Below are positions 1 through 22,852 of a stretch of DNA of 33,265 nt, in pieces. The position numbers and the translations under genes are program-made. Each line of letters starts with the position of its first letter. Position 1 is the first letter of the stretch. The notes under the pieces are model-generated. The model had not been told where the DNA came from, made no database searches, and saw only the letters and a program-made list of their open reading frames with translations. Origin of the DNA: Deltaproteobacteria bacterium (GTDB taxonomy: Bacteria; Myxococcota_A; SURF-8); NCBI GenBank assembly GCA_029570245.1, contig JAKQSH010000185.1, positions 1 through 33,265 of the forward strand, written 5' to 3'.

Positions 1-984
1 GTCGTTGACCTCCGTTAACGGGAATGCAACAAAATTAGGACTCAGAATCAGATTCTGATTGGCTGTCTGGCAGCTCAGGTTGATTCTGGCTTCAGGTCTT
101 TCCGGGTCGTTGGTATCGAAAATAAGCGTATTCTCGTATGTGCCGGCCTCAACTGAATAGCAGGAAATGTTGAATGTAAACGAACCGTTCATTGGAATCA
201 GTCTCTCTCCGAAAGAACCGATGCCGAGGTCCTGTGTCTGAAAAACACTCAGTTCCGGATTGGAAAATCTGAAGTTGGAAAGCTCAAGGGTGGCGCAGCC
301 GTCTGCGAGGTCCAGCCCGTTGCTTATTTTCACCGGCACCTGAGTGAATCTGTTCTTGCTTATCATTCCGAAGTCGATTTCGTTGTCCGGCGAAATTTCA
401 ATTATGGGATTGCCGGAATTTTCATGCCTGAGTTCAATCATAATCGGTTCCGGGCTGTGGCTGATGCTGATTTCCAGAGCGCCGCCGGTTCCGGCTATGC
501 CTGTTCCGAGATAACCGACATCCACATCCAGCCTTCCGCCGGGAAGCAGTGTGATGCTTTCGTTTTCAGCAAGATAATCCTCCGGCAGGATATAGAACTG
601 CGGTACGGAGTCGGAGGTAAGGTGGTATGATACAATGATTGCTCTCTTCGGCCCGAAGTTTTCGATTCTCACAGTTCTGACAACTTCCTCGTTTCCGGCT
701 ATTACACAACCGAAATCAAGCTCTCTGGGGCTGACTGTATAAGTGGGGTCTTCTATGTCAGTCTCGGTTTCATTTTCAGGCTCCAGATCGTCATCGACGA
801 AATCGCCGTCGGTTTCGGCTTCGGTTTCTGCCGCATCAGTCTCAATCTCGACATCGCCTTCCGGCGCGCCGGACTGGTCGCCGTCGCCATCGGCGTTTAT
901 AACTCCGCTTATAGTGCTGTCCGTGCAGGCTCCGGCAAAGATTGATAACGAGATCAGCAGCAGAACTGAAAGAATTGATTTCAT
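1..984 (-). CDS. Secreted (probable lipo)protein with signal peptide, D/E-rich linker and tandem choice-of-anchor-D / ASH-like beta-sandwich repeats. The 3' end is cut by the window edge.
   Basis: Absent from the ORF track because it runs off the left edge. My reverse-complement translation from ATG 984..982 is open for all 328 codons. It reads MKSILSVLLLISLSIFAGAC-TDS, then ADGDGDQSGAPEGDVEIETDAAETEAETDGDFVDDDLEPENETETD. Repeat units follow: LDFGCVIAGNEEVVRTVRIENFG... and IDFGMISKNRFTQVPVKISN...LIFDTNDPERPEARINLSC. An SD-like AAGGTGAGG lies just upstream of the ATG. Confidence 0.75.
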   Translation of the reverse strand, partial: MKSILSVLLLISLSIFAGACTDSTISGVINADGDGDQSGAPEGDVEIETDAAETEAETDGDFVDDDLEPENETETDIEDPTYTVSPRELDFGCVIAGNEEVVRTVRIENFGPKRAIIVSYHLTSDSVPQFYILPEDYLAENESITLLPGGRLDVDVGYLGTGIAGTGGALEISISHSPEPIMIELRHENSGNPIIEISPDNEIDFGMISKNRFTQVPVKISNGLDLADGCATLELSNFRFSNPELSVFQTQDLGIGSFGERLIPMNGSFTFNISCYSVEAGTYENTLIFDTNDPERPEARINLSCQTANQNLILSPNFVAFPLTEVND

Positions 985-1292
985 CGCCTCACCTTCTGAT
1001 TTTACTGAGCATTAGCTTTACATTTTATCCGTTGTTTTCAGTCTATTCATGTTATTTTTGTTTTACAAATGTTTTCTTGTCACATTTACCGTTTTTCCGT
1101 GTAGATGAAAATAAAGACTGGAAAATGTGCCGGAAATATGTTTTTTGCTGTATCTGCAACAATTTTATTGCGGATTATCTCTGATTTCTGTTCACATCTG
1201 CCTGAATAAGTGGAATAATAATCAATTGTGGATGGTTATTGCCTCATGGCAGCCGGCTCGTTTTTCGTTGCAGAACGCGAAAGGAGACATGA

Positions 1293-3231: not shown

Positions 3232-4017
3232 TTGGCCAGAGCAAAAACTAATCCTTTAAACACCACTTTTTCGTTCGAAACCACGCTTATATGGATGGGG
3301 TCGATTTCTCTGCTTGCGGGCCAGACCATAAAGCGCATGTTTTCCGGCGGAGTGGAATTCGGTGAAATAGTCCATCAGATAAAAGTTCTGGGTATCAAGT
3401 CGCTTACAATCGTCAGTCTCACTGCGGTTTTCTCCGGGGCGGTCATGGGATTGCAGTTCGGCATGGCCATGGGGCGTTTCGGCGCGCGTGAAATGGTGGG
3501 GCAGGTGGTGTCTATGGCCATTCTGCGCGAACTGGGTCCGGTTCTGACGGCACTGCTGGTGGGCGGACGCATCGGGTCGGGTATGGCGGCGGAACTTGGT
3601 TCCATGCGCGTCACCGAACAGATAGACGCCATCCGCATTCTGGGCGCCGATCCCATTACCAAGCTTATCGTGCCGCGTGTGCTGGCGACGGTAATAATTT
3701 CGCCGCTGCTGACGATCTGGGCCGATCTTATCGGCGTTCTGGGCGGTGCGGTGGTGGCAAATACCGAATTCGGCGTCGGATATCAGTATTATTATCAGTC
3801 GGTTTTCGACATGATCGAAATCGCCGACTTCGTGTCGGGCGTAAGCAAGTCGGTTTTCTTCGGTTTTCTGGTGTCGCTGATAGCATGCCATGAAGGCTTC
3901 AACACGCGCGGCGGAACCGAAGGCGTAGGGCATTCCACCACCCGCACGGTGGTGTTGCTGTCCATAATAACGCTTATAGCCGACTTCATGCTGACTAAAA
4001 TTTTCCTGATGTTGTAG
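3232..4017 (+). CDS. mlaE: MlaE-family ABC transporter permease
   Basis: Characteristic MlaE/YrbE segments are present: AILRELGPVLTALLVGGRIGSGMAAELGSMRVTEQIDAIRILGADPI and GGTEGVGHSTTRTVV. About 260 aa. TTG start. Confidence 0.9.
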   Translation: MARAKTNPLNTTFSFETTLIWMGSISLLAGQTIKRMFSGGVEFGEIVHQIKVLGIKSLTIVSLTAVFSGAVMGLQFGMAMGRFGAREMVGQVVSMAILRELGPVLTALLVGGRIGSGMAAELGSMRVTEQIDAIRILGADPITKLIVPRVLATVIISPLLTIWADLIGVLGGAVVANTEFGVGYQYYYQSVFDMIEIADFVSGVSKSVFFGFLVSLIACHEGFNTRGGTEGVGHSTTRTVVLLSIITLIADFMLTKIFLML

Positions 4018-4023
4018 GGTGAA

Positions 4024-4812
4024 ATGCTGGAACTCGAAACCGAAAAATTCAAGGCTGGCGATATAATCATAACCTATCAGGATGTCTGGAAAGGCTTTGA
4101 AGACCTGTCGGTTTACGAAGGACTGAACCTCGAAATCCGCAAGGGCGAGACGGTTTCCATAATGGGCGGGTCGGGCACCGGAAAGACCGTGGCGCTTAAA
4201 ATGCTGGTCGGGTTGCTTACACCGGATCGAGGCGACATAACGGTTTTCGGAAAAAGCATCATAGGCATAAGCGAAAAAGACTGGGTGGCTGTGCGTCAGC
4301 GTGTTTCTCTGCTTTTCCAGAGCAACGCACTTTTCGATTCGCTTGATGTGCGCGAAAACCTGGCCTATCCGTTGCGCATAAAAGACCCGCACATCGCCGA
4401 ATCCGAAATCGACCGGCTGGTTGAAGAAAAACTGGGGCTGGTGGGCCTGCCGGGCATCCAGCACAAAAAACCGTCCGATCTGTCCGGCGGCATGCAGAAG
4501 CGGGTCGGTCTGGCGCGTGCCATCGTAACGGAACCGGACGTTATATTGTGGGACGAACCGACCACTGGTCTTGATCCGATCAACACACGCAGAATCGGCA
4601 GCCTCATCAAACGCATGAATGAGGTTTTAGGTTGCACCAGCATTGTTGTAACGCACGACATCGGCACGGCCTTCGAAGTGTCCGATCGCATCGCGTTTCT
4701 TTTCAATAAAAAACTGATTCTGACAGACACGACTGAAAATATTAAGAAAACCGACGTTCCCGAAGTAAGAAACTTCCTCGACGGGCGCTTCCAGGGTCTG
4801 TACGGGGAATGA
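4024..4812 (+). CDS. mlaF: MlaF-like ABC transporter ATP-binding protein
   Basis: Walker A GGSGTGKT, ABC signature LSGGMQKRVGLARA, Walker B ILWDEPTTGLD, H-loop VTHD. Positioned between the permease and the MCE gene. Confidence 0.9.
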   Translation: MLELETEKFKAGDIIITYQDVWKGFEDLSVYEGLNLEIRKGETVSIMGGSGTGKTVALKMLVGLLTPDRGDITVFGKSIIGISEKDWVAVRQRVSLLFQSNALFDSLDVRENLAYPLRIKDPHIAESEIDRLVEEKLGLVGLPGIQHKKPSDLSGGMQKRVGLARAIVTEPDVILWDEPTTGLDPINTRRIGSLIKRMNEVLGCTSIVVTHDIGTAFEVSDRIAFLFNKKLILTDTTENIKKTDVPEVRNFLDGRFQGLYGE

Positions 4813-4827
4813 AAACGGGTTTATATC

Positions 4828-5949
4828 ATGCGCGATAAAAAGACATTCATTCAGGTAGGAATTTTCGTAACCATACTGAGCCTGCTCTTTTTCATCATTG
4901 TATTTGTAATCGGTCAGGAGCGCAGCATGTTCGAATCGACCACTACGCTGTACACCTGGTTTAAAAATGTCGGCGGACTGAAAGCCGGCGCCCAGGTGCG
5001 TCTGTCTGGTGTGGCGGTCGGCTCGGTAACCGAAATAAGTTTTGCAGATGCGCTCGACGAACCGCGCCTGAAAATCGAAATGCAGGTCAAAACTTCGGTC
5101 ATGCCGCGCATCCGCCAGGATTCCAAGGCCACCATCAGTTCCAAGGGGCTTCTTGGCGATAAAGTCATAGAAATTTCCGTGGGTTCCATGGGCAAAGAGC
5201 AACTTGAAGAATATCAGTTCATCGAAAGCACCGAACCGCCCGATATCGCAACAATCATGGAAACCGGAGCCGAAATGCTTGGGCATATCAAAGACGTAGC
5301 CAAGGACCTGTCCGGTATGACCAGCGGTATCGGAGAAGAAACCATCGACGATATAAAAAGCACCATTGCACACTTCGAAGACGTAATGTCAGAGGTACGT
5401 AACGGTGACGGCATTGTTCACGGTCTTATTTACGACACCAAGGCCAACTCCGACTTCAGAGGTTCTCTGTCCAATATTCATGTCGCAACTGTAAAACTCA
5501 ATAAATCCATCGACCATGTCGAAAAAATACTGGAAGAAGTGCGTACCGGTGATGGCCTTATTCACAGTCTGGTTTACCAGAAAGAAGGCGGTCAGATTGT
5601 GAAAAACCTCGAAGAAGCCTCTGCCGTCGTGACCGAAATTGTCAATGCCATCAAAAACGACAAGGGCATGCTGCACACCCTTATTTACGATGAGGACAAG
5701 GGTAATTTTATCCGCAACCTGAATCAGGCTTCCGACGACATCCGCCATCTTACCGAATATATCCGTTCTGGACAGGGTACAGTCGGGGCGCTTATAAACG
5801 ATCCGACGGTTTACGAAGACCTGAAAGTTATTCTGGGCAACATAAAACGCAATAAAGCCCTTAAAGCCCTTGTCCGAATGTCAATAGAGCGGGAGGAAGA
5901 GGAGGGCGACAGTCGCCGCATCAAGTCGGAAGATGAAGAGAAACACTGA
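4828..5949 (+). CDS. mlaD: MlaD/MCE-domain protein with a long C-terminal repeat extension
   Basis: N-terminal TM helix, then an MCE domain (VGGLKAGAQVRLSGVAVGSVTEI...SSKGLLGDKVIEIS). About 230 further residues carry four repeats: GDGIVHGLIYD, GDGLIHSLVYQ, DKGMLHTLIYDE and GQGTVGALINDP. Confidence 0.85.
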   Translation: MRDKKTFIQVGIFVTILSLLFFIIVFVIGQERSMFESTTTLYTWFKNVGGLKAGAQVRLSGVAVGSVTEISFADALDEPRLKIEMQVKTSVMPRIRQDSKATISSKGLLGDKVIEISVGSMGKEQLEEYQFIESTEPPDIATIMETGAEMLGHIKDVAKDLSGMTSGIGEETIDDIKSTIAHFEDVMSEVRNGDGIVHGLIYDTKANSDFRGSLSNIHVATVKLNKSIDHVEKILEEVRTGDGLIHSLVYQKEGGQIVKNLEEASAVVTEIVNAIKNDKGMLHTLIYDEDKGNFIRNLNQASDDIRHLTEYIRSGQGTVGALINDPTVYEDLKVILGNIKRNKALKALVRMSIEREEEEGDSRRIKSEDEEKH

Positions 5950-5991
5950 AATGATCTGAAGTCGCAGGATTTGTTCCGGGGGGAAGTAAGA

Positions 5992-6933
5992 ATGAATTAT
6001 TTGAAACCATACATTGAGGCGTTTTTCAGGCTTCCGCGTTTGTGGTTTCTGCTTCTGGTGCAGGTTCTGCTTGATGCTGCGCTGGGGATTATGACTTTTC
6101 TACCATTCTTTCTGGCAATTTCGCTCTTTCTGCGCGCCTTTCTGCTTTCGCCTCCGGCAGGGGGAACTTCGCTTGAGGATATAGTCACTCCATTAAGAAT
6201 ACTGCTCGGAAACACCTGCGTGGCGTTCGCCATTTCAGGTTTCATGGCGGCATACCTTGTTACGGCATTTATGATGAAGGTTCTCATTCGTTCTGTGCTT
6301 ATGGCCGGAGTGGCGGACGTGGCGCGCGGCCAGCCGTTCGCCGGTCCTGTATCGCTGCTTTCGGGCGCAATCCGCCTCTGGCCGCGATTTGTTCCGCTGT
6401 ATCTGGCCGGATTTGTCGGAAACATTCTTTTCATAATCACAGCCGGAAGTTTCCTGCTGCTCATGTTTTATTTCGTCGATCCATATCTGCATGACAACAC
6501 TCCCGGTCTGCGTTATGTGTTTGATATAGCTTATCTTCTGCTGACAGTCGGGCCTCTGCTCGGAATGTATGTGCTGGGTCTGGCAGTGTGGTATCTGGCG
6601 CATCTGACTATTGCCGTTGACAATCTGTGCTGCATTGAAGCTGTAAAAACCGCATGGCGCTTATTATGGCAATACAGTGCGCAACTTATGATTTTTCTGC
6701 TGGCGCTGCTTTATCCGGCTGCCTTGCTGTGGGCGGTTTCGCTGGGCGGAAGCTCCATGCTGATGAGCATACGCATACAAAGCGGTTTCGCCGGAGTGTT
6801 TTCGCTCGCTTCGAACGCATGGTCGCTGACATTCATACTTGTCGGCTACGCACTGAATCTTTTTGTGATTCTCGGCATGGCGGTTTTTTATCGCGAAACG
6901 GCAAAAAGCCGGACTGAAGCCGGCTCCATATGA
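5992..6933 (+). CDS. Polytopic integral membrane protein, hypothetical (last gene of the mla-like cluster)
   Basis: At least 6 hydrophobic helices. The G-rich SD-like GGGGGAAG precedes ATG 5992 (the track's TTG 5971 is less likely). No catalytic motif recognised. Confidence 0.65.
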   Translation: MNYLKPYIEAFFRLPRLWFLLLVQVLLDAALGIMTFLPFFLAISLFLRAFLLSPPAGGTSLEDIVTPLRILLGNTCVAFAISGFMAAYLVTAFMMKVLIRSVLMAGVADVARGQPFAGPVSLLSGAIRLWPRFVPLYLAGFVGNILFIITAGSFLLLMFYFVDPYLHDNTPGLRYVFDIAYLLLTVGPLLGMYVLGLAVWYLAHLTIAVDNLCCIEAVKTAWRLLWQYSAQLMIFLLALLYPAALLWAVSLGGSSMLMSIRIQSGFAGVFSLASNAWSLTFILVGYALNLFVILGMAVFYRETAKSRTEAGSI

Positions 6934-6983: not shown

Positions 6984-7012
6984 TTGACCTCTCCGCTTTT
7001 TCCTGTTGAAAT
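6984..7012 (+). promoter_or_regulatory. Candidate promoter for the giant ORF
   Basis: TTGACC (6984..6989), 17-nt spacer, TGAAAT (7007..7012), in the 130-nt gap upstream of ATG 7064. Pattern match only. Confidence 0.25.
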
Positions 7013-7063
7013 GAAACATTATGAGGCCATAGTACAAACAGGTCATTTACGGAGAATGGCGAG

Positions 7064-10000
7064 ATGAATCCAAAGTCAGTAAAACGGTTAATGTTGCTGG
7101 GTATTGTCACGTGCATGCTGGCGTTAGCTTCGCCGGCGGCGCACGCCGGACTTTTCGACGGTATGCTTGACGGTGTTGAAGGCATTACGCCTCTGCCGTA
7201 CATGGCATATCCGGTTGACGACAAGGTAAATCAGCTCGCCCAGGTTCGCATCACCGATCCGGGCTTCACCTACCTCGAAAACCATGTGGTTGACATAATA
7301 AAGCCGTTTCTTGGCGAAAGCTTCGACGTGCTGGAAGGCGGCAGCCTGGTGATCTGCAATTATTGCGGCGGTTCCGGCAATTACTGTTCGATATCGGTTG
7401 ACATCCAGAACGTTGACATAGTTTCGGAAGCGCCGAACACCTTATGGGTCAATGTCCGTCTGGCTCCAATTGATTTCAGGCTCGAAACCACCTGCGCCTG
7501 CAACATAGACGTTACCACCAACGGCCAGCCGGTGGATGTTCAGGTGAAAATACAGCCGCAGATAGACGGTTTCACTCGTCAGCTTTACCTTGATGTTTCG
7601 CTTGGGTATCTCGAACTCGGCTCGCTGGTGGATGTCAAGCTTAACGGTGTCTGCGACTTCCTGAATCTGCTGGAAGGACTCATCAACGCCATCGTCAGCG
7701 GCATGAACAGCACCATCAACAATCTCATTTACACCACGGTTAAAGACGCTGTTGACAGCTTCCAGTGCATGGCCTGCGAAACCAACGCCGACTGTCCGAC
7801 TTCTCCGCCTGCTCCCTACGGCACGGTCTGCGACACCGAAAAGAAAATTTGCCGTTACGATTACGACCCGGAAGAGTCCTGCGTCTATGCTCCGCTCGGC
7901 ATCGAAGCCGAAGTCGATCTGGGATATCTGCTCAAAGATTTGATGCCCGGTCTCAAATCCAAAATCTGGGCTTCGCTGGTTGCGGGCGGCTACGGCACCT
8001 GTCCCTACGGCGGCCTCGATCTCGGCATGTTCGGCGGCACAATGCCCGCCGGAGAGCCCGAACTCTGCACCAGCGAACTCAACTATGTGCCACAGGTTCC
8101 GCCGCGCGTTTTCTGCCGCAACCAGGGCGGAGTCGTTAAGGAACCCTGCAACGAAAACCTCAACGTGAATCCGCATGCTGTGTTCCACGCCGGTCTGGGT
8201 TTGGCCGAAGAACTGCTCGATCAGGCGGGAGCCACCATCCAGGATTCAGGTCTGCTCTGTCTGCAACTCGACAACAGCATGGAAGGCGTCGGCGATTACC
8301 TCTCGCTGTCCACCTTCTCGCTGCTGATTCCTTCGCTCAAAATCTACAGTCACGAACAGGAAGTTCCGGTTCTCATCAAACTTGCTCCCACAAAACAGAC
8401 CGAACCCACTGTTGATTTCAGAATCGCCAGCTCCGACGCTGCTTTCCCGAATCCCGAAGACCCGGATGTCGATTCGGCTCTGGTCATCTTCCTGGACGAC
8501 ATAGCCATCAACATTTACGGCTTTGTCGATGAACGTTATGTCCGCATGTTCGAGCTGCTGACCGATATCGAAATCACCGCCGGTCTTCAGACTGAAGGCG
8601 GCAACAGCATTACTCCCATTTTCGGACTCAACAACGTAAAGCTTACAAACATGAGCGTGCCGTTCTCGGTACAGGACCTGCCGCCCGAAGACCTGGCTGC
8701 AACGCTTGAAGGGCTTATCGGCGGTCTGCTCGGACAGATTCCGCTCGATCCGTTCGAGCCGATCAAAATTCCCGGCTTCAGTCTGCTCGAAAACACACTG
8801 TCCTGCACGGGCGATCCGGCCTGCCAGAACGTTGACCCCGACCTGCTGTGCAGCGGCGGAATCTGTGTTGATGCCGACGGCAAGCCCTACGATCCGCAGG
8901 AACTCTTTGTCGATCTGCAATCCATCAGCCCCGAAATTCCCAAGGACAGCCAGGGCTACGCGCACCGTATGCTGGTGGCCTACGCCAATCTGCGCTGGGA
9001 AACCGATGGCGTCAAAAAAGAAACCGAAGAATATGTGTTCGAATCGGAGACTTATGCTGACATAGCCGAAATATTCATGCCCACGGTCGATCAGATCGTC
9101 AAAGAACGCATGCGCCCGGTCGTAACGCTCGAAATCGGCGGCGAAGACGCCGAAGGAGGCGACGAAAATCTGGTATATCAGGTGAAAATCGGCGCTTCGG
9201 CCTGGAAGAACGTCCGTGGCGGAACGCTGGTTCTGGATGATCCGGCATTCCTGCTTCAGGGCAAACATGTTATCCAGGTTCGCAGCCGTGACGTGCGTTT
9301 CAGCGACTGGGACAGCTCACCCGAAACACTGAGCGTACTGGTAGATTACACCGCGCCGCATGCCGATCCTCAGCAGGACGCATCGCTGTTGTATTTCAGA
9401 GGCAGCGACAACGTCACGAAGGCTTCCGATCTCAAATATCAGATCAGTGTTGACGGCGGCGAATGGTTCGCAGTCGGCAGCGAAAAATTCAATCTGGCTG
9501 ATCTGCCTTCGTGGCCGAAGTCTGTCAGCGTAAAAGTCATTGACGAAAAGGGTCTTGAAACAGTGGTCGAAAAAGCAATCGGCAATCCCGAACCCGCAAG
9601 CGGAATCGAACGCAAAGTCGCCGCAGGCAAGTCTGTTCCCGAAGGAATCGACAGCGGCTGTTCCTCATCCTCTTCCGCCGGATGGTTGCTGGCGCTGCTG
9701 CTTCTGCCTCTGGCTGTACTCAGAAGTCTGCGTAAAGCCGGTGCTTTCACCGCTTTGTTTGCGGCTGTAACTCTGGCCGGTCTTACTCTGGCGTCCTGCT
9801 CCGGCAGCGGCTCCAGTGGTTGTGTTAACAACACCGATTGCGGAGCCGGGCAGCGTTGTGTAAACGGAACCTGTGAAGATGTCAACGACAACGGCGACGC
9901 CGATGGAATCGTAATTCCCGAAGGCGACCAGGACGACGTCGGTGAAGAAGACATCGAAATAGACGGCGACAAGCCAGATGGCGATGCAGATGAAGTAGAT

Positions 10001-12097
10001 GAAGATGTTGTCATCCCATGCGAGACACAGGCGGATTGTCCCAAATGTTATCGCTGTTCAACGCTGAAAAAACAGTGTGAACTCCAGGAATGCGACCCGG
10101 AATGTCCCGAAATTCCCGACTGCGTGACACAGAATAACGATACATGTTTTTCATGTAACACCAGTAGTGACTTCCATTTCTGCGAAAGGCCGCGTTGCGA
10201 TGCCGACAACTGGGAAGAAGTCTGTGCCTGCCGGGTCTGCGAAGGCGATACTCCGGTGCTTTCCTGCGAAGAATCCACCGGTCTCTGCATTTGCAACACA
10301 TGGTGCAAAGGAGCTTGTCCCAACGGTTCCTTCTGCTGCAAACCTCCGGTAAGCGAAAATCCTATCGGCGAATGTACAACCTGTCCGGGCTGGTGCGAAG
10401 GCACGGTCTGCGATCCGGGTTACGCTCCTGGCGGCTGCGATCCGACCGAAATGGATTGCGGCTTCGAATGGAAACCCTGTGACAACATAAATTACGAAAC
10501 TTGCCAGGCCGAAGGCACCGGTTCCCCGAACGATCCCAATTGCGCCTGTGCCGAAAAACCGCCGCTGCCCATCGGATACCATGGCCGCTACAACGACATG
10601 GCCGTAGCTGCCATCAGTGACGACAAAAATCCCGTTGACAGCCTGATCTGGGTTTCGACTTACAACGAAACCTACGGCGACCTTATGATAGGCACGACCT
10701 ATTATTCGCACATTCCGGCGGAAGGCATTACGCCCGAAGAAAGCTATCACTGGTTCTTCGCCGACGGTATTCCCAGCCTGGACGACGAAGGCGTCACCAT
10801 CGAAGGCGGTCCTTCGGGCCCGCGCGGCGGAATTAAAAAGCCCGGCCCAGATGTTGGCATGTTCACTTCAATAGCGCTTTCAGCCGAAGGCTGGCCGCGT
10901 GTGGCATATCAGGATGTCGATAATGGCGACCTGCTCTTCATGTATACCGACGGAGTTCTGGCCGAAGGAGTAACCCTTGAAGAAGGTGCAGAAATCGACC
11001 CGAACAACTACGTCTGGAACAAAATTGTGGTCGATGCCCCGGGCAACACCGGCTACTACACCGACCTCATAATCGACTCCGAAGGTCGTCCGATCATCGC
11101 TTACATGAGCGCCGAAATGGAAGGCCAGAAAATTTCACAGCTCAAACTGGCCATGGCAGTAAACGCCAGTCCCGCCGGGCCGGAAGATTTCCGCTTTGCG
11201 GTAGTTGACAGCGCTGCCGTGGCCGGAATGCCCTGCGGCGGAACCTGTTCGGGCGGCAACGCATGCATAGCTGCTCCCGGTGGTGATTCCTGCGTGGGAC
11301 CCACCAGCGACTGCGGTGGAAGCTGCGAAGGCAAGCAGGTCTGTTACAACGGCTCCTGCTACAACAAACGCACCGCCCCGGCTTTCGTCAGCCTACCCGA
11401 CGGCATCGGTTTGAACCCCGAAATGGCCTTCTACGCCGACGGTTCGCTGTGGGTAGTTTACTACGACAACAACGTCTATTCTGGCGGTGAAGTCGTAAAA
11501 CACGGCTATCTCAAGCGCGCCATTCTCGGCGGCGGAGCGCCCAATCCCGACACCATCGCCACTGCGGCATTCACACGTACAATACTGGCGGGTCCGGAAG
11601 GATCGGCGGTAGCAGGCGACTGCGGTCTTTACAGCTCATTGGCGGTCGTAAAGACCACCGGATGGTGGGCGGTGAGTTTCTACAATGTCACGATGAATCA
11701 GCTGATGCTGCTGTTCGATCTGGGCGAAGGTATAAAAACCTATGTGGCCGACGACGGCTGGCGCGATGTGAACGGCACAAACTATCAGCGCCGCACCATG
11801 ACCGGAGCCGACAGCAGAATCGTTTTCGATCATACCGGCGCTTTCAATGTGGTCTATCAGCAGCAGAGCGATTCGGTGCTTGAGTTCTACAACGTCAAGT
11901 GTTACAGCGATGGCGAGTGCGACAGTTTGGAAGAGTCGCGCCAGGACGTTCTGACCATGGTTGACGACGAATACGGCAAGTCCTACGGCTATTATCCCAA
12001 TATTTATTTCATAGCCAACGGCGCACCGATAATTTCGTCATACGGTGTCGAACTTGCCCCCAAAAAGAATCTGGGCTTCTTCCTGGTGAAACCCTGA
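7064..12097 (+). CDS. Giant secreted cysteine-rich surface protein (1677 aa) built from two modules. Module 1 is a BPI/TULIP-like region plus an Ig-like domain. Module 2 is a Cys-rich region plus a beta-propeller-like repeat region.
   Basis: GGAG lies 9 nt before the ATG. Signal peptide [28 protein letters not shown]. The frame is open over 5 kb. Recurrent C-x3-DC-x(n)-C-x2-G-x-C knots are present. The C-terminal third has 6 or more repeats of the type G.Y..L..D..G.P.IAY (for example [18 protein letters not shown] and [18 protein letters not shown]). A strong terminator follows the gene. Confidence 0.85.
   Translation: [1677 protein letters not shown]
9656..9736 (+). other. Internal MYXO-CTERM-like tripartite sorting tag (GC-SSSSS, hydrophobic helix, basic residues) in mid-ORF
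   Basis: Codon-by-codon reading gives G865-C866[25 protein letters not shown]. The same architecture forms the true C-terminus of the peptidase at 21155..21247. Confidence 0.6.
9722..9799 (+). other. Internal lipoprotein-type signal peptide with canonical lipobox, in mid-ORF
   Basis: [26 protein letters not shown] (Cys912, TGC 9797..9799) has an n-region, h-region and L-A-S-C lipobox. No stop codon, ATG or SD lies between it and the preceding tag. The only in-frame alternatives are CTG 9728 and TTG 9755, and neither has an SD. Confidence 0.55.
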
Positions 12098-12118: not shown

Positions 12119-12160
12119 AACACCCGGGTCGTTACGGGACGATCCGGGTGTTCTTTTTTT
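12119..12160 (+). terminator. Rho-independent terminator of the giant ORF
   Basis: A 12-13 bp GC-rich stem (12121..12133 CACCCGGGTCGTT pairs with 12138..12150 GACGATCCGGGTG, with two G-U pairs) closes a 4-nt loop and is followed by TTCTTTTTTT. It sits 23 nt after the stop at 12097. Confidence 0.85.
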
Positions 12161-21151: not shown

Positions 21152-22570
21152 TCAGCGGACTTCGTCTTCCCTGCGGCGATATGCCAGCAGTGTCCCGGCC
21201 AGCAGCATAAGCAGCGCCGAAGGCATGCTCGAAGAACTGCAGCCGTCCGAACCGGAACCGGAGCCTTCGTCTTCAACAGCTTCATCGCCGTCTTCTAAGG
21301 GTTCTTCGGCAGCTTCTGCTTCAAGCTCTTCGTCGCCGTCGCCTTCAGGCTCTTCCGACTGAATTTCGATTTTAAGGTTTACCGTTATCAGTGGGCCGTT
21401 GGAAGGCATAATGACAAAAGGCTGTTCGATCAGGCCTGGGGCGTGTCCTGCAATATCGACAGTGAAGTTTACATTTTCCGACTCTCCGACATCAAGATGT
21501 CCTTCGGTGGGAGTCACCGTAACCCAGCCTTTCCAGGTTATGTCTTCTCTGAGTGTCCAGCTGATATCCAGATCGCCGCAGTTTTCTAAATTCAGATCGA
21601 ACTGTACGGTATCGACAACGCTTCCCGGTTCGAGCACTTTTTCCAGCGTTTCAGGCTGGCACAAACCGATGTTCAACGGTTCATCCGGGACGGTTTCGGG
21701 GTCGATTCTGAGCCAGTCGGCGGTAATGACTGCGAAGCAGCTGGTACCGCGTTTTATTTCGAAATAGCCGTCCATGCCCCAGTCTGCACCCCATGAGTTA
21801 CGGGCGATCCACGAATCATGCTCGTCATCCCAGCCTACCAGTGTGACGATATGATTGGGGGCCAGATGTGTCAGTGAGCAGGCTTCGGTGAAGCCGTAGT
21901 ATACGCCGCTGCGATAATAATACAGATCGTTTTCAGCGCGCATGGTTACTGTCAGAGGTCCTTTCATAAGCTCTTCTTTAAGTTCTTCTTCGGTGGGAGT
22001 AAGCATGATCGACCAGTCGCTGAGCTTGACAATGCGTGTCAGATAATCGTCGCAGGCGTCTTCACAGAGTCCTTCTTCTGCCAGATACGGATAACAAATT
22101 TCATCGGGAATACCGTTTTTTTCGATGTAGCCAAGCACTTCCTCGGCGAATCCGCCGCCGTCGCAGCTTCCTCCGCCGCAGGCCACCATGAATTGTTCGG
22201 AAAGGTCATAGTCGAAATCCGGGTCTTCCTTGTAAATGTTTATGAGGCCCTCCATTGCACCCAGAGCACCGAAAGTCCAGCAGCTGCCGCAGCCACCCTG
22301 GTTTCTGACTGGGGTCATCCAGTCCACGCCGTCCATGTCGTGCCAGTTCCAGTGCGCCGGAAAATCCGTTTTCGTGACAGGCTTGCGGTCTTTGGGCAGA
22401 GTGCCGTGTTTCATGGCGTAGCTCAGATCGAGCGGAGTGTTTATCAGGCGGTCTCTGACTTCCTGTGGCAGACGCGACATGCCAGTTTCGCCGCGAACCC
22501 AGTCAGCATAAGCCGGCAGAGCCCATAGAAAAGCCAGAAGAACAGCAGTCAGGATGGCCGATGATTTCAT
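21152..22570 (-). CDS. Papain-family (C1) cysteine peptidase with a beta-sandwich domain, acidic linker and MYXO-CTERM-like tail
   Basis: Signal peptide MKSSAILTAVLLAFLWALPAYA from ATG 22570 (GAGG SD). Catalytic motifs are NQGGCGSCWTFGA, NHIVTLVGWDD and NSWGADWGMDGYF. The upstream 76 codons in the track cross the promoter region and are rejected. Confidence 0.9.
   Translation of the reverse strand: MKSSAILTAVLLAFLWALPAYADWVRGETGMSRLPQEVRDRLINTPLDLSYAMKHGTLPKDRKPVTKTDFPAHWNWHDMDGVDWMTPVRNQGGCGSCWTFGALGAMEGLINIYKEDPDFDYDLSEQFMVACGGGSCDGGGFAEEVLGYIEKNGIPDEICYPYLAEEGLCEDACDDYLTRIVKLSDWSIMLTPTEEELKEELMKGPLTVTMRAENDLYYYRSGVYYGFTEACSLTHLAPNHIVTLVGWDDEHDSWIARNSWGADWGMDGYFEIKRGTSCFAVITADWLRIDPETVPDEPLNIGLCQPETLEKVLEPGSVVDTVQFDLNLENCGDLDISWTLREDITWKGWVTVTPTEGHLDVGESENVNFTVDIAGHAPGLIEQPFVIMPSNGPLITVNLKIEIQSEEPEGDGDEELEAEAAEEPLEDGDEAVEDEGSGSGSDGCSSSSMPSALLMLLAGTLLAYRRREDEVR
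21155..21247 (-). other. C-terminal MYXO-CTERM-like sorting tag
   Basis: The last 31 aa read DGC-SSSS-MPSALLMLLAGTLLAY-RRREDEVR: a Cys-containing motif, a hydrophobic helix and an Arg cluster. A 40-aa D/E/G-rich linker precedes it. Confidence 0.65.
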
Positions 22571-22852
22571 TTCATACCTCGTAGAAACGTTTAATTTCAA
22601 ATGCTTATTATACATGAATTCTCGAAATGTCAGATAGAAAATGAAGGCAGACTCGAAAAAATACCGGTTAGGCCATGCTCTGTTTACGGTCTGCCTGCCG
22701 GAAACAGTCGTAAAATATACGCAGAAGCCGGATATCCGCTGCGGAAAATACAATTCGCCGGAAAATCTTCCATATCTTGCATTTGCCTCCCGAATCAATT
22801 AGTCATTTAATATGTGCAATGTTTATCAGAACTGCAAACAAACGGGGATGCG

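Follow-up and report, generated by a model that had tools for sequence, protein, structure and literature searches.

The stretch of DNA analysed here (the window) comprises 33,265 nucleotides (nt), contig JAKQSH010000185.1 of assembly GCA_029570245.1, from a deltaproteobacterium of the Myxococcota_A lineage SURF-8. It contains a single open reading frame (ORF) of 1677 amino acids (aa), in the middle of which a sorting tag of C-terminal type is followed directly by a lipoprotein-type signal. Codons 863-912 of this ORF encode DSGC-SSSSS, a transmembrane (TM) helix (TM1), the basic cluster RSLRK, a second TM helix (TM2) and LASC; we refer to this arrangement as the cassette. The whole junction reads E860-G-I-D-S-G-C866-SSSSS-AGWLLALLLLPLAVL(872-886)-RSLRK(887-891)-AGAFTALFAAVTLAGLT(892-908)-L-A-S-C912-SGSGSSGC, with the codon of Cys866 at nt 9659-9661 and that of Cys912 at nt 9797-9799. 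Our retranslation agrees in sequence, coordinates and residue numbers (866 and 912) with an earlier sequence-only reading of the same DNA.

That reading had also stated that no stop codon, ATG or Shine-Dalgarno (SD) motif separates the two parts, and this is confirmed: codons 855-915 contain no stop and no in-frame ATG or GTG, and neither of the two in-frame TTG codons (875 and 898) is preceded within 20 nt by an SD-like motif. The ORF itself has an SD-like GGAG 9 nt before its ATG, a promoter-like site at 7006-7033, before its start, and, 22 nt past its stop, a strong terminator-like hairpin at 12119-12152 (+ strand) with a 15-bp stem and a T-run. Nothing comparable to any of these three elements was found at the junction. 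A 5-bp terminator-like stem at 9739-9752 was rejected as being at chance level (8 found vs 6.4 +/- 3.1 expected). With a promoter-like site before it and a terminator-like hairpin after it, the ORF may be transcribed on its own, even though Mla genes lie upstream. The features of the ORF and of its surroundings are collected in Table 1.

Table 1. Positions of the features discussed in the text (window coordinates; a slash marks a cleavage site)
Feature	Position	Strand	Basis or remark
Single ORF, predicted precursor, 1677 aa	7064..12097	+	translation
N-terminal Sec signal peptide, type I (…ASPAAHA/GLFDG)	7064..7147	+	cleavage site read by eye
BPI/LBP/CETP-like double-TULIP lipid-binding module, aa ~41-556	7184..8731	+	AlphaFold2 (AF2) model, Foldseek
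Immunoglobulin (Ig)/fibronectin type III (FnIII)-like beta-sandwich domains, aa ~662-838	9047..9577	+	AF2 model, Foldseek
Internal MYXO-CTERM-type tripartite tag, D-S-G-C866-SSSSS + TM1 + RSLRK	9650..9736	+	translation, hidden Markov model (HMM), family census
TM1 of internal tag, aa 872-886	9677-9721	+	translation
Basic cluster RSLRK, aa 887-891	9722-9736	+	translation
Internal lipoprotein-type signal: n-region RSLRK (common to tag), h-region, lipobox	9722..9799	+	PS51257 core pattern satisfied
h-region of internal lipoprotein signal, aa 892-908	9737-9787	+	translation
Lipobox L-A-S-C912	9788-9799	+	translation
Ser/Gly, then D/E-rich + Cys-rich region, 249 aa	9800..10546	+	composition; weak Myxo_Cys_RPT matches
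C-terminal beta-propeller, aa 1162-1677 (516 residues)	10547..12094	+	AF2 model, Foldseek
MlaE, ABC ATPase, MlaD/MCE + polytopic membrane protein	3232..6933	+	directly upstream of the 1677-aa ORF, same strand
Papain-family (C1) cysteine peptidase	21152..22798	-	BACON/Ig-like domain matches, acidic linker
Peptidase C-terminal MYXO-CTERM tag, ends GSDGCSSSSMPSALLMLLAGTLLAYRRREDEVR and stop	21152..21253	-	translation, HMM
Left-edge lipoprotein, MKSILSVLLLISLSIFAGAC-TDS...	~1-1005	-	start ~1005; runs off window

Verification of the junction sequence

The sequence-only reading had left room for a sequencing or assembly error that removed a stop codon. Such an error is excluded at the junction, because seven independent runs are identical there and because the frame is kept through 29 codon changes in a relative of 84% identity. 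The interval 9700-9760 shows 0 substitutions and 0 gaps in contigs of all seven runs (X1-X5, X10 and X13). Logan contigs from four runs of four studies (X1-X4: an anaerobic digester of 2024, activated sludge of 2016, a 2025 run and a biogas fermenter of 2025) span 9400-10100 with zero substitutions and zero gaps, and the contigs of X5, X10 and X13 also cross the junction identically. X13 is a metatranscriptome; its contig covers 9648-9798, that is, from just before Cys866 to almost the end of the Cys912 codon.

The relative is the 84%-identical orthologue P0002, which lies in a fully syntenic locus (L005). It differs from the window in 29 of the 55 junction codons (861-915), with 16 synonymous and 13 conservative non-synonymous changes and with neither an indel nor a stop. 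Over the whole gene, 573 codon differences are synonymous vs 266 non-synonymous. A search for the locus with four close sequences returned only the SURF_8 Myxococcales metagenome-assembled genome (MAG).

A length difference was observed elsewhere in the ORF. The database protein P0001 (1680 aa) is otherwise identical to the window protein and differs by a 3-aa DFL duplication (GVCDFLDFLNLLEGL vs GVCDFLNLLEGL) at window position ~7655-7663, aa 198-200, which amounts to a 9-nt tandem-repeat length polymorphism between populations.

Conservation of the cassette

An initial protein search found 19 homologues, among them two full-length ones at 35-38% identity and a class of shorter proteins (1210-1390 aa, 23-32% identity). 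Inspection by eye showed the internal arrangement in all 19. The named homologues are proteins of Myxococcales and Kofleriaceae MAGs, all annotated as hypothetical. A profile of the junction plus its flanks was then compared with 1.84 billion cluster representatives; 19,215 of them matched at E<=1e-3, and 3,145 at E<=1e-30. Among the best 150 matches, nearly all are single proteins of 1200-1450 aa aligned over the entire profile, and these 150 together with the earlier homologues make up a family set of 166 proteins.

Within this set, the end of the N-terminal half (N-half) and the start of the C-terminal half (C-half) were located by HMMs, and the region between them was passed to an automated cassette detector. 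This HMM-anchored procedure replaced a stricter regular expression, which had matched 130 of the 166 proteins. Both halves are present in 159 proteins of the set, and the cassette is kept in all 159, which are cluster representatives down to 24% identity: the detector passes 150, and the remaining 9 show the cassette by eye, having failed in details only, such as N-E-G-C or a short TM2. A check of orthologous loci for one gene or two had been proposed, and the outcome is one gene in every two-half homologue. Since all 159 have one gene and not two, the fusion is, on this comparative evidence, ancient and selected and not the product of a recent loss of a stop and a start.

The cassette has a constant layout, consisting of a Gly-Cys(xCys) signature, TM1, a basic loop, TM2, and a small residue followed by Cys. 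Among the 150 proteins passed by the detector, the first Cys is preceded by Gly in 125, and a second Cys stands at +2 (GCxC) in 87. The loop between the two helices has a median length of 8 residues and contains, over all 150 proteins, 840 Lys or Arg vs 33 Asp or Glu. TM2 has a median length of 16 residues. The residue before the Cys that follows TM2 is Gly in 115, Ala in 30 and Ser in 5; the detector demanded one of these three, and in the first 19 homologues, which were read without that constraint, the residue is likewise always Gly, Ala or Ser. This Cys is followed by Ser, Gly, Asp or Asn at +1 and often by Cys at +2, and the distance from Cys to Cys across the cassette is 38-84 residues.

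A detector for a Cys signature, a TM helix, a basic loop, a TM helix and [GAS]C with at least 100 aa after it was applied to the window and six related loci, which yield 213 six-frame ORFs of 200 aa or longer (90,098 residues). Only family members matched, and the cassette exceeds chance expectation.

The hairpin has pseudo-symmetric ends: a G-C-x-C motif stands before TM1 (second Cys in 87/150) and again after TM2 (63/150, typically GCSCG), the corresponding sites in the window being 9659-9667 and 9794-9802.

The N-terminal signal peptide of the precursor varies within the family. It looks like type I in the window ORF (AHA/G) and in the 84% relative (AQA/N). Unlike the window ORF, 106 of 119 full-length family members begin with a lipoprotein-type signal, and most members would thus carry a lipid anchor at each end of the N-half.

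Modules on either side of the junction

Pfam gave no match in either half of the window protein, and the halves were characterized by structural modelling. In the N-half, the AF2 model is of moderate confidence (pLDDT 69, pTM 0.62) and shows two helix-wrapped sheets, that is, the two super-roll domains of TULIP proteins, followed by beta-sandwich domains. The best Foldseek matches in PDB are human BPI (1bp1, E 1.4e-13), LBP (4m4d) and CETP (2obd), with clostridial OrfX/P47 TULIPs and then FnIII and Ig domains further down. The homologue P0016 has a precomputed Pfam match to PF01273, which is consistent with a BPI-like N-half. After the Ig/FnIII-like domains, a low-confidence linker (aa 839-862) follows.

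The C-half begins with a region in which 35 Cys occur in 249 aa between the lipobox and the propeller. This density implies an oxidising location, and the C-half is thus predicted to be extracytoplasmic. The propeller model is of good confidence (pLDDT 82.6, pTM 0.84), and its best Foldseek matches are the seven-bladed lectins PLL/PHL (E ~1e-10) and sialidase-type propellers.

Each of these modules also exists alone, with the matching signal at its normal terminus. P0167 (878 aa, from an NCBI MAG), which came from a second, word-indexed protein search with full alignment (13 matches), is a stand-alone N-half that ends in TAGCSTGAGLGLVGLAAWLRRRRRA and then a stop, so that its tag is truly C-terminal; the gene after it encodes an unrelated small secreted protein. 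A search with a C-half profile found stand-alone C-halves (P0174-P0185), 594-735 aa long and matching 75-100% of the propeller query, which begin as N-terminal lipoproteins, with Met, an h-region and G-C-S/D-C, followed by Cys-rich repeats; examples are P0174 (MNRRHLGLFLFLLCFPFFTGTGCSCG), P0175 (LVSLAVGCDCGS) and P0178 (AMAALGGCSCDEK). The GCSC/GCDC motif is kept in these lipoproteins. Together with the conservation in 159 of 159 proteins, the separate modules with terminal signals substantiate the earlier proposal that the ORF joins two surface proteins in frame or is a polyprotein.

Some candidates for a split version of the gene were rejected. At the stand-alone C-half P0177, the upstream gene for a 933-aa protein is unrelated to the N-half and tagless (hhalign probability 0.9%). 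The short proteins P0141 and P0155 both begin inside TM2 and are probably truncated gene calls. The 933-aa protein (locus L008, 1445-4246, + strand) is a lipoprotein with many tandem Cys-rich repeats and without a Pfam match, encoded 44 nt upstream of P0177, and may be an alternative partner of the stand-alone propeller lipoprotein.

Comparison with sorting-tag and lipoprotein models

The first part of the cassette has the main elements of a MYXO-CTERM tag. The Gly/Ser-rich signature with its invariant Cys corresponds to D-S-G-C866-SSSSS, and the TM helix followed by a basic cluster corresponds to AGWLLALLLLPLAVL and RSLRK. The position is different, since MYXO-CTERM tags stand at the extreme C-terminus and here 786 residues come after the basic cluster. 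When the tags of homologues are excised and scored as C-terminal sequences, P0017 (29.8 bits) and P0014 (22.1 bits) exceed the cutoff of 20 of the MYXO-CTERM model TIGR03901, and P0005, with 16.7 bits, passes the cutoff of 15.85 of TIGR03382. In a census of the family, 60 of 100 excised tags match TIGR03901 at E<=7e-4 (~20 bits), the best at 7.9e-11.

The second part agrees with the core of the lipoprotein pattern PS51257, {DERK}(6)-[LIVMFWSTAG](2)-[LIVMFYSTAGCQ]-[AGS]-C, with Lys or Arg in the n-region (RSLRK...VTLAGL-TL-A-S-C), and 111 of 149 second sites of the family satisfy the same core pattern. A lipoprotein Cys is expected within ~15-35 residues of the precursor start, and here it is residue 912. 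Counted from the first basic residue of the loop, the 'virtual' signal peptide is 26 aa long in the window and 12-45 aa long in 143 of 149 family members.

One further model, NF058595 ('lipo-invert putative C-terminal anchoring domain'), gives at best 22.1 bits on the window, far from its cutoff of 37. This score is obtained with both helices and the lipobox, whereas TM2 and the lipobox give 14.2 bits and TM1 alone gives none; 3 of the 19 first homologues match at E<=0.01. The model suggests a similar TM-loop-TM-Cys layout, and we take it as a lead and not as a classification. In the literature, no paper describing the model was found.

Proposed processing and alternatives

We consider it probable that the ORF encodes a precursor which was fused long ago and whose hairpin is cleaved at each end to give two lipid-anchored proteins; the cleavages themselves we infer from the signals and from their conservation. 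As to the enzymes, the chances are about even that the protein is a lipoprotein polyprotein in which myxosortase and LspA cut the ends of the hairpin and both new termini are lipidated, possibly both by Lgt.

The steps can be outlined from the established Sec, Lgt/LspA and myxosortase pathways (PMC11980579). The N-terminal signal peptide would start Sec export of the BPI-like half, and TM1 would then stop the transfer, leaving the basic loop in the cytoplasm in line with the positive-inside rule. TM2 would re-initiate export of the Cys-rich and propeller half, so that both large domains would be periplasmic and joined by a membrane hairpin. Lgt would lipidate Cys912 and LspA would cut before it, making the C-half an ordinary lipoprotein. 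At the other end, Cys866 would be lipidated by a lipid transferase and myxosortase (a CPBP protease) would cut after it, giving the N-half a C-terminal lipid anchor, and the hairpin of ~45 aa would be discarded. The expected outcome is two lipid-anchored products of ~90 and ~80 kDa, in a strict 1:1 ratio and in the same place. They would plausibly be partners, a lipid-binding double-TULIP protein and a propeller or lectin-like receptor.

Several observations weigh against cleavage on both sides. The internal tag of the window, excised as a C-terminal sequence, scores below cutoff with TIGR03901 (18.8 bits vs 20) and, at best, with the Synerg-CTERM model TIGR04564 (21.2 bits vs 22.5); with TIGR03382 it is likewise below (14.4 bits vs 15.85). 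The strict lipobox [LVI][ASTVI][GAS]C is found in only 32 of 149 second sites. No CPBP protease (myxosortase) is among the scanned ORFs of at least 150 aa in the 33-kb window, and no adjacent pair of N-half and C-half genes was found at the loci checked (L007/L008). The known substrates of LspA and Lgt have their signal peptide at the N-terminus, and neither enzyme is known to act on a signal whose n-region continues into a TM helix.

Because its position is not terminal and its HMM score is below threshold, the window tag is not a MYXO-CTERM tag in the strict sense; very probably it works like one, joined to a lipoprotein signal. The canonical tag on the neighbouring papain-family peptidase implies that a myxosortase system would be present in this genome. 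Membership in Synerg-CTERM was rejected, as the score is below cutoff and the model is restricted to Synergistales whereas the homologues are from Myxococcales and Kofleriaceae. A Pro interrupts the Leu-rich part of TM1 in the window lineage and in P0003/P0004 (LLLLPLAVL; window 9677-9721), and to it we attribute the nearly equal Synerg-CTERM score.

The first alternative is that the hairpin stays uncleaved, so that the product is a two-pass inner-membrane protein with both domains in the periplasm and with Cys residues that are lipidated without cutting or that form a disulfide staple. The topology would fit equally well, CxC motifs stand on both sides (87/150 and 63/150), and the strict lipobox is confined to a minority of second sites. 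Nevertheless, the first motif is the same as that of true C-terminal MYXO-CTERM tags, which have no partner Cys, and P0167 carries the tag terminally. Stand-alone C-halves, for their part, use the same G-C-S-C as a normal N-terminal lipobox. A plain TM hairpin needs neither an invariant Gly-Cys nor an invariant small residue before Cys, and we regard this alternative as fairly unlikely.

Processing on one side only is unlikely. It could take place at the lipobox side, by LspA or by signal peptidase I at T-L-A/S, or at the tag side; with a cut at the lipobox alone, the C-half would be released and the N-half would remain anchored in the inner membrane by TM1, the loop and TM2. Myxosortase may need a free C-terminal basic tail, TLA/S could fit a type I cleavage site, and the sub-threshold score of the window tag also speaks for such a scheme. 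It does not account for the conservation across the family of the Gly-Cys signature upstream of TM1 or for the recognition of 60 of 100 tags by the MYXO-CTERM model, and it runs counter to the published view that sorting tags work internally (PMC11980579).

Separate synthesis of the C-half from an internal translation start could make use of the in-frame TTG codons at 875 and 898, and some homologues have a Met in the loop or in TM2. It is very improbable, as neither TTG has an SD-like motif before it, a start at 898 would lose the basic n-region, the Met positions are not conserved in the family, and there is no promoter-like site near the junction. Finally, an artefact or a fusion that arose recently by accident, be it through loss of a stop, a frameshift, chimeric assembly or pseudogene decay, has a practically negligible probability in view of the seven identical runs, the fusion of 159 of 159 homologues at up to 75% divergence and the predominance of synonymous changes gene-wide (573 vs 266), and no point in its support was found.

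Neighbouring genes

The genes directly upstream of the ORF form an Mla/MCE cluster that also includes a polytopic membrane protein of 320 aa without a Pfam match. The cluster is syntenic in the 84% relative (L005, 6155-9845). A family-wide linkage to Mla genes was rejected, since it holds only in the window and in that relative and is absent at the loci of P0004, P0005 and P0012. The adjoining cluster and the BPI-like fold together hint at a role of the ORF in lipid trafficking.

The sequence-only reading had noted that the first part of the cassette resembles the C-terminus of the papain-family peptidase encoded further downstream. This resemblance is borne out, and the tail of the peptidase itself passes the cutoffs of both models, with 21.3 bits vs 20 for MYXO-CTERM and 16.3 vs 15.85 for TIGR03382 (GC_trans_RRR). 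The peptidase also weakly matches the tail of a 'myxosortase-dependent phytase-like phosphatase'. The lipoprotein with an acidic linker that had been noted at the left edge is likewise present, on the - strand, where LSIFAGAC-TDS...DGDGDQ gives a D/G-rich linker after the lipobox Cys.

Relation to known systems

We found no published description of a back-to-back tag and lipobox cassette as a family trait; one internal MYXO-CTERM tag has been published. A search of full-text literature on internal lipobox or lipoprotein signals and on inverted lipoboxes found nothing relevant. An internal MYXO-CTERM tag had been reported once, as an atypical fusion; here such a tag occurs without exception in at least 159 divergent proteins, each time with a lipobox directly after it. 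This invariance argues that internal tags are functional and that a tail-to-head fusion of signals is a selected way to obtain two anchored proteins from one gene. Since a classical Lgt/LspA site and a tag site stand at opposite ends of one hairpin, the cassette is a natural substrate for identifying the enzyme that lipidates the tag Cys and for finding out if a free C-terminus is required for cleavage. If the proposed processing is true, the cassette would serve Myxococcota as a reusable 'cut-and-anchor both sides' module, here producing a stoichiometric pair of a BPI-like carrier and a propeller. The analysis also identifies a widespread, unannotated bacterial family of BPI-like (double-TULIP) envelope proteins. 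In the window lineage its gene adjoins Mla/MCE genes, which bears on lipid trafficking in diderm envelopes.

The closest known system is MYXO-CTERM/MrtX, exemplified by TraA of Myxococcus xanthus (Haft 2023, 10.1101/2023.06.07.544157; Guo, Haft & Wall 2025, PMC11980579). Cleavage of MYXO-CTERM by MrtX depends on the Cys, and Lgt is the leading candidate for lipidation of the tag (PMC11980579); GCxC has been described as typical of MYXO-CTERM (Haft). The ORF shares with this system a tag in three parts (an invariant Cys, often as GCxC; a TM helix; a basic cluster), as well as the occurrence in Myxococcota. It differs in that ~790 residues separate its tag from the C-terminus and that a second TM helix follows directly on its basic cluster.

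Internal MYXO-CTERM motifs are rare in ORFs, and sorting tags are said, with evidence cited, to work internally (PMC11980579). The published example is MXAN_5598, an adhesin followed by a tag and then by an outer-membrane beta-barrel/OmpA part; its authors call it atypical and explain it by a probable gene fusion, and its N-terminal part is proposed to be processed and anchored at the surface (PMC11980579). A dual-processed polyprotein had been called unusual in the sequence-only reading; MXAN_5598 makes an internal MYXO-CTERM not wholly unprecedented. The tag of our ORF can likewise be read as the product of a gene fusion. Unlike MXAN_5598, the ORF belongs to a different family, and PMC11980579 mentions neither a lipobox after the tag nor family-wide conservation.

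With the lipoprotein pathway (Lgt, LspA, Lnt) the ORF shares a basic n-region, a 17-residue uncharged h-region, L-A-S-C and Ser at +2; it differs in that the signal is internal (Cys912 as against 15-35) and its n-region is tethered to an upstream TM helix. NF058595 describes a C-terminal domain, whereas the cassette lies in mid-chain and scores far below 37.

The fold of the N-half resembles eukaryotic BPI/LBP/CETP. The same BPI-like double-TULIP lipid-binding fold occurs in TipA of Bdellovibrio, which works with a partner protein encoded beside it (bioRxiv 10.1101/2025.09.09.675085). TipB was rejected as an analogue of the C-half, being a small beta-sandwich. Unlike our ORF, TipA and TipB are encoded by two genes, and no sorting-tag cassette is reported for them (10.1101/2025.09.09.675085).

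As regards the precursor as a whole, the ORF, in which an internal signal sequence would re-initiate export from one precursor, resembles FbcH in that respect. FbcH of Bradyrhizobium (cytochrome b-c1) is a polyprotein that is split at an internal signal peptide into two membrane-associated products in a 1:1 ratio. Its cleavage site is one for type I signal peptidase, with neither lipidation nor a C-terminal sorting tag.

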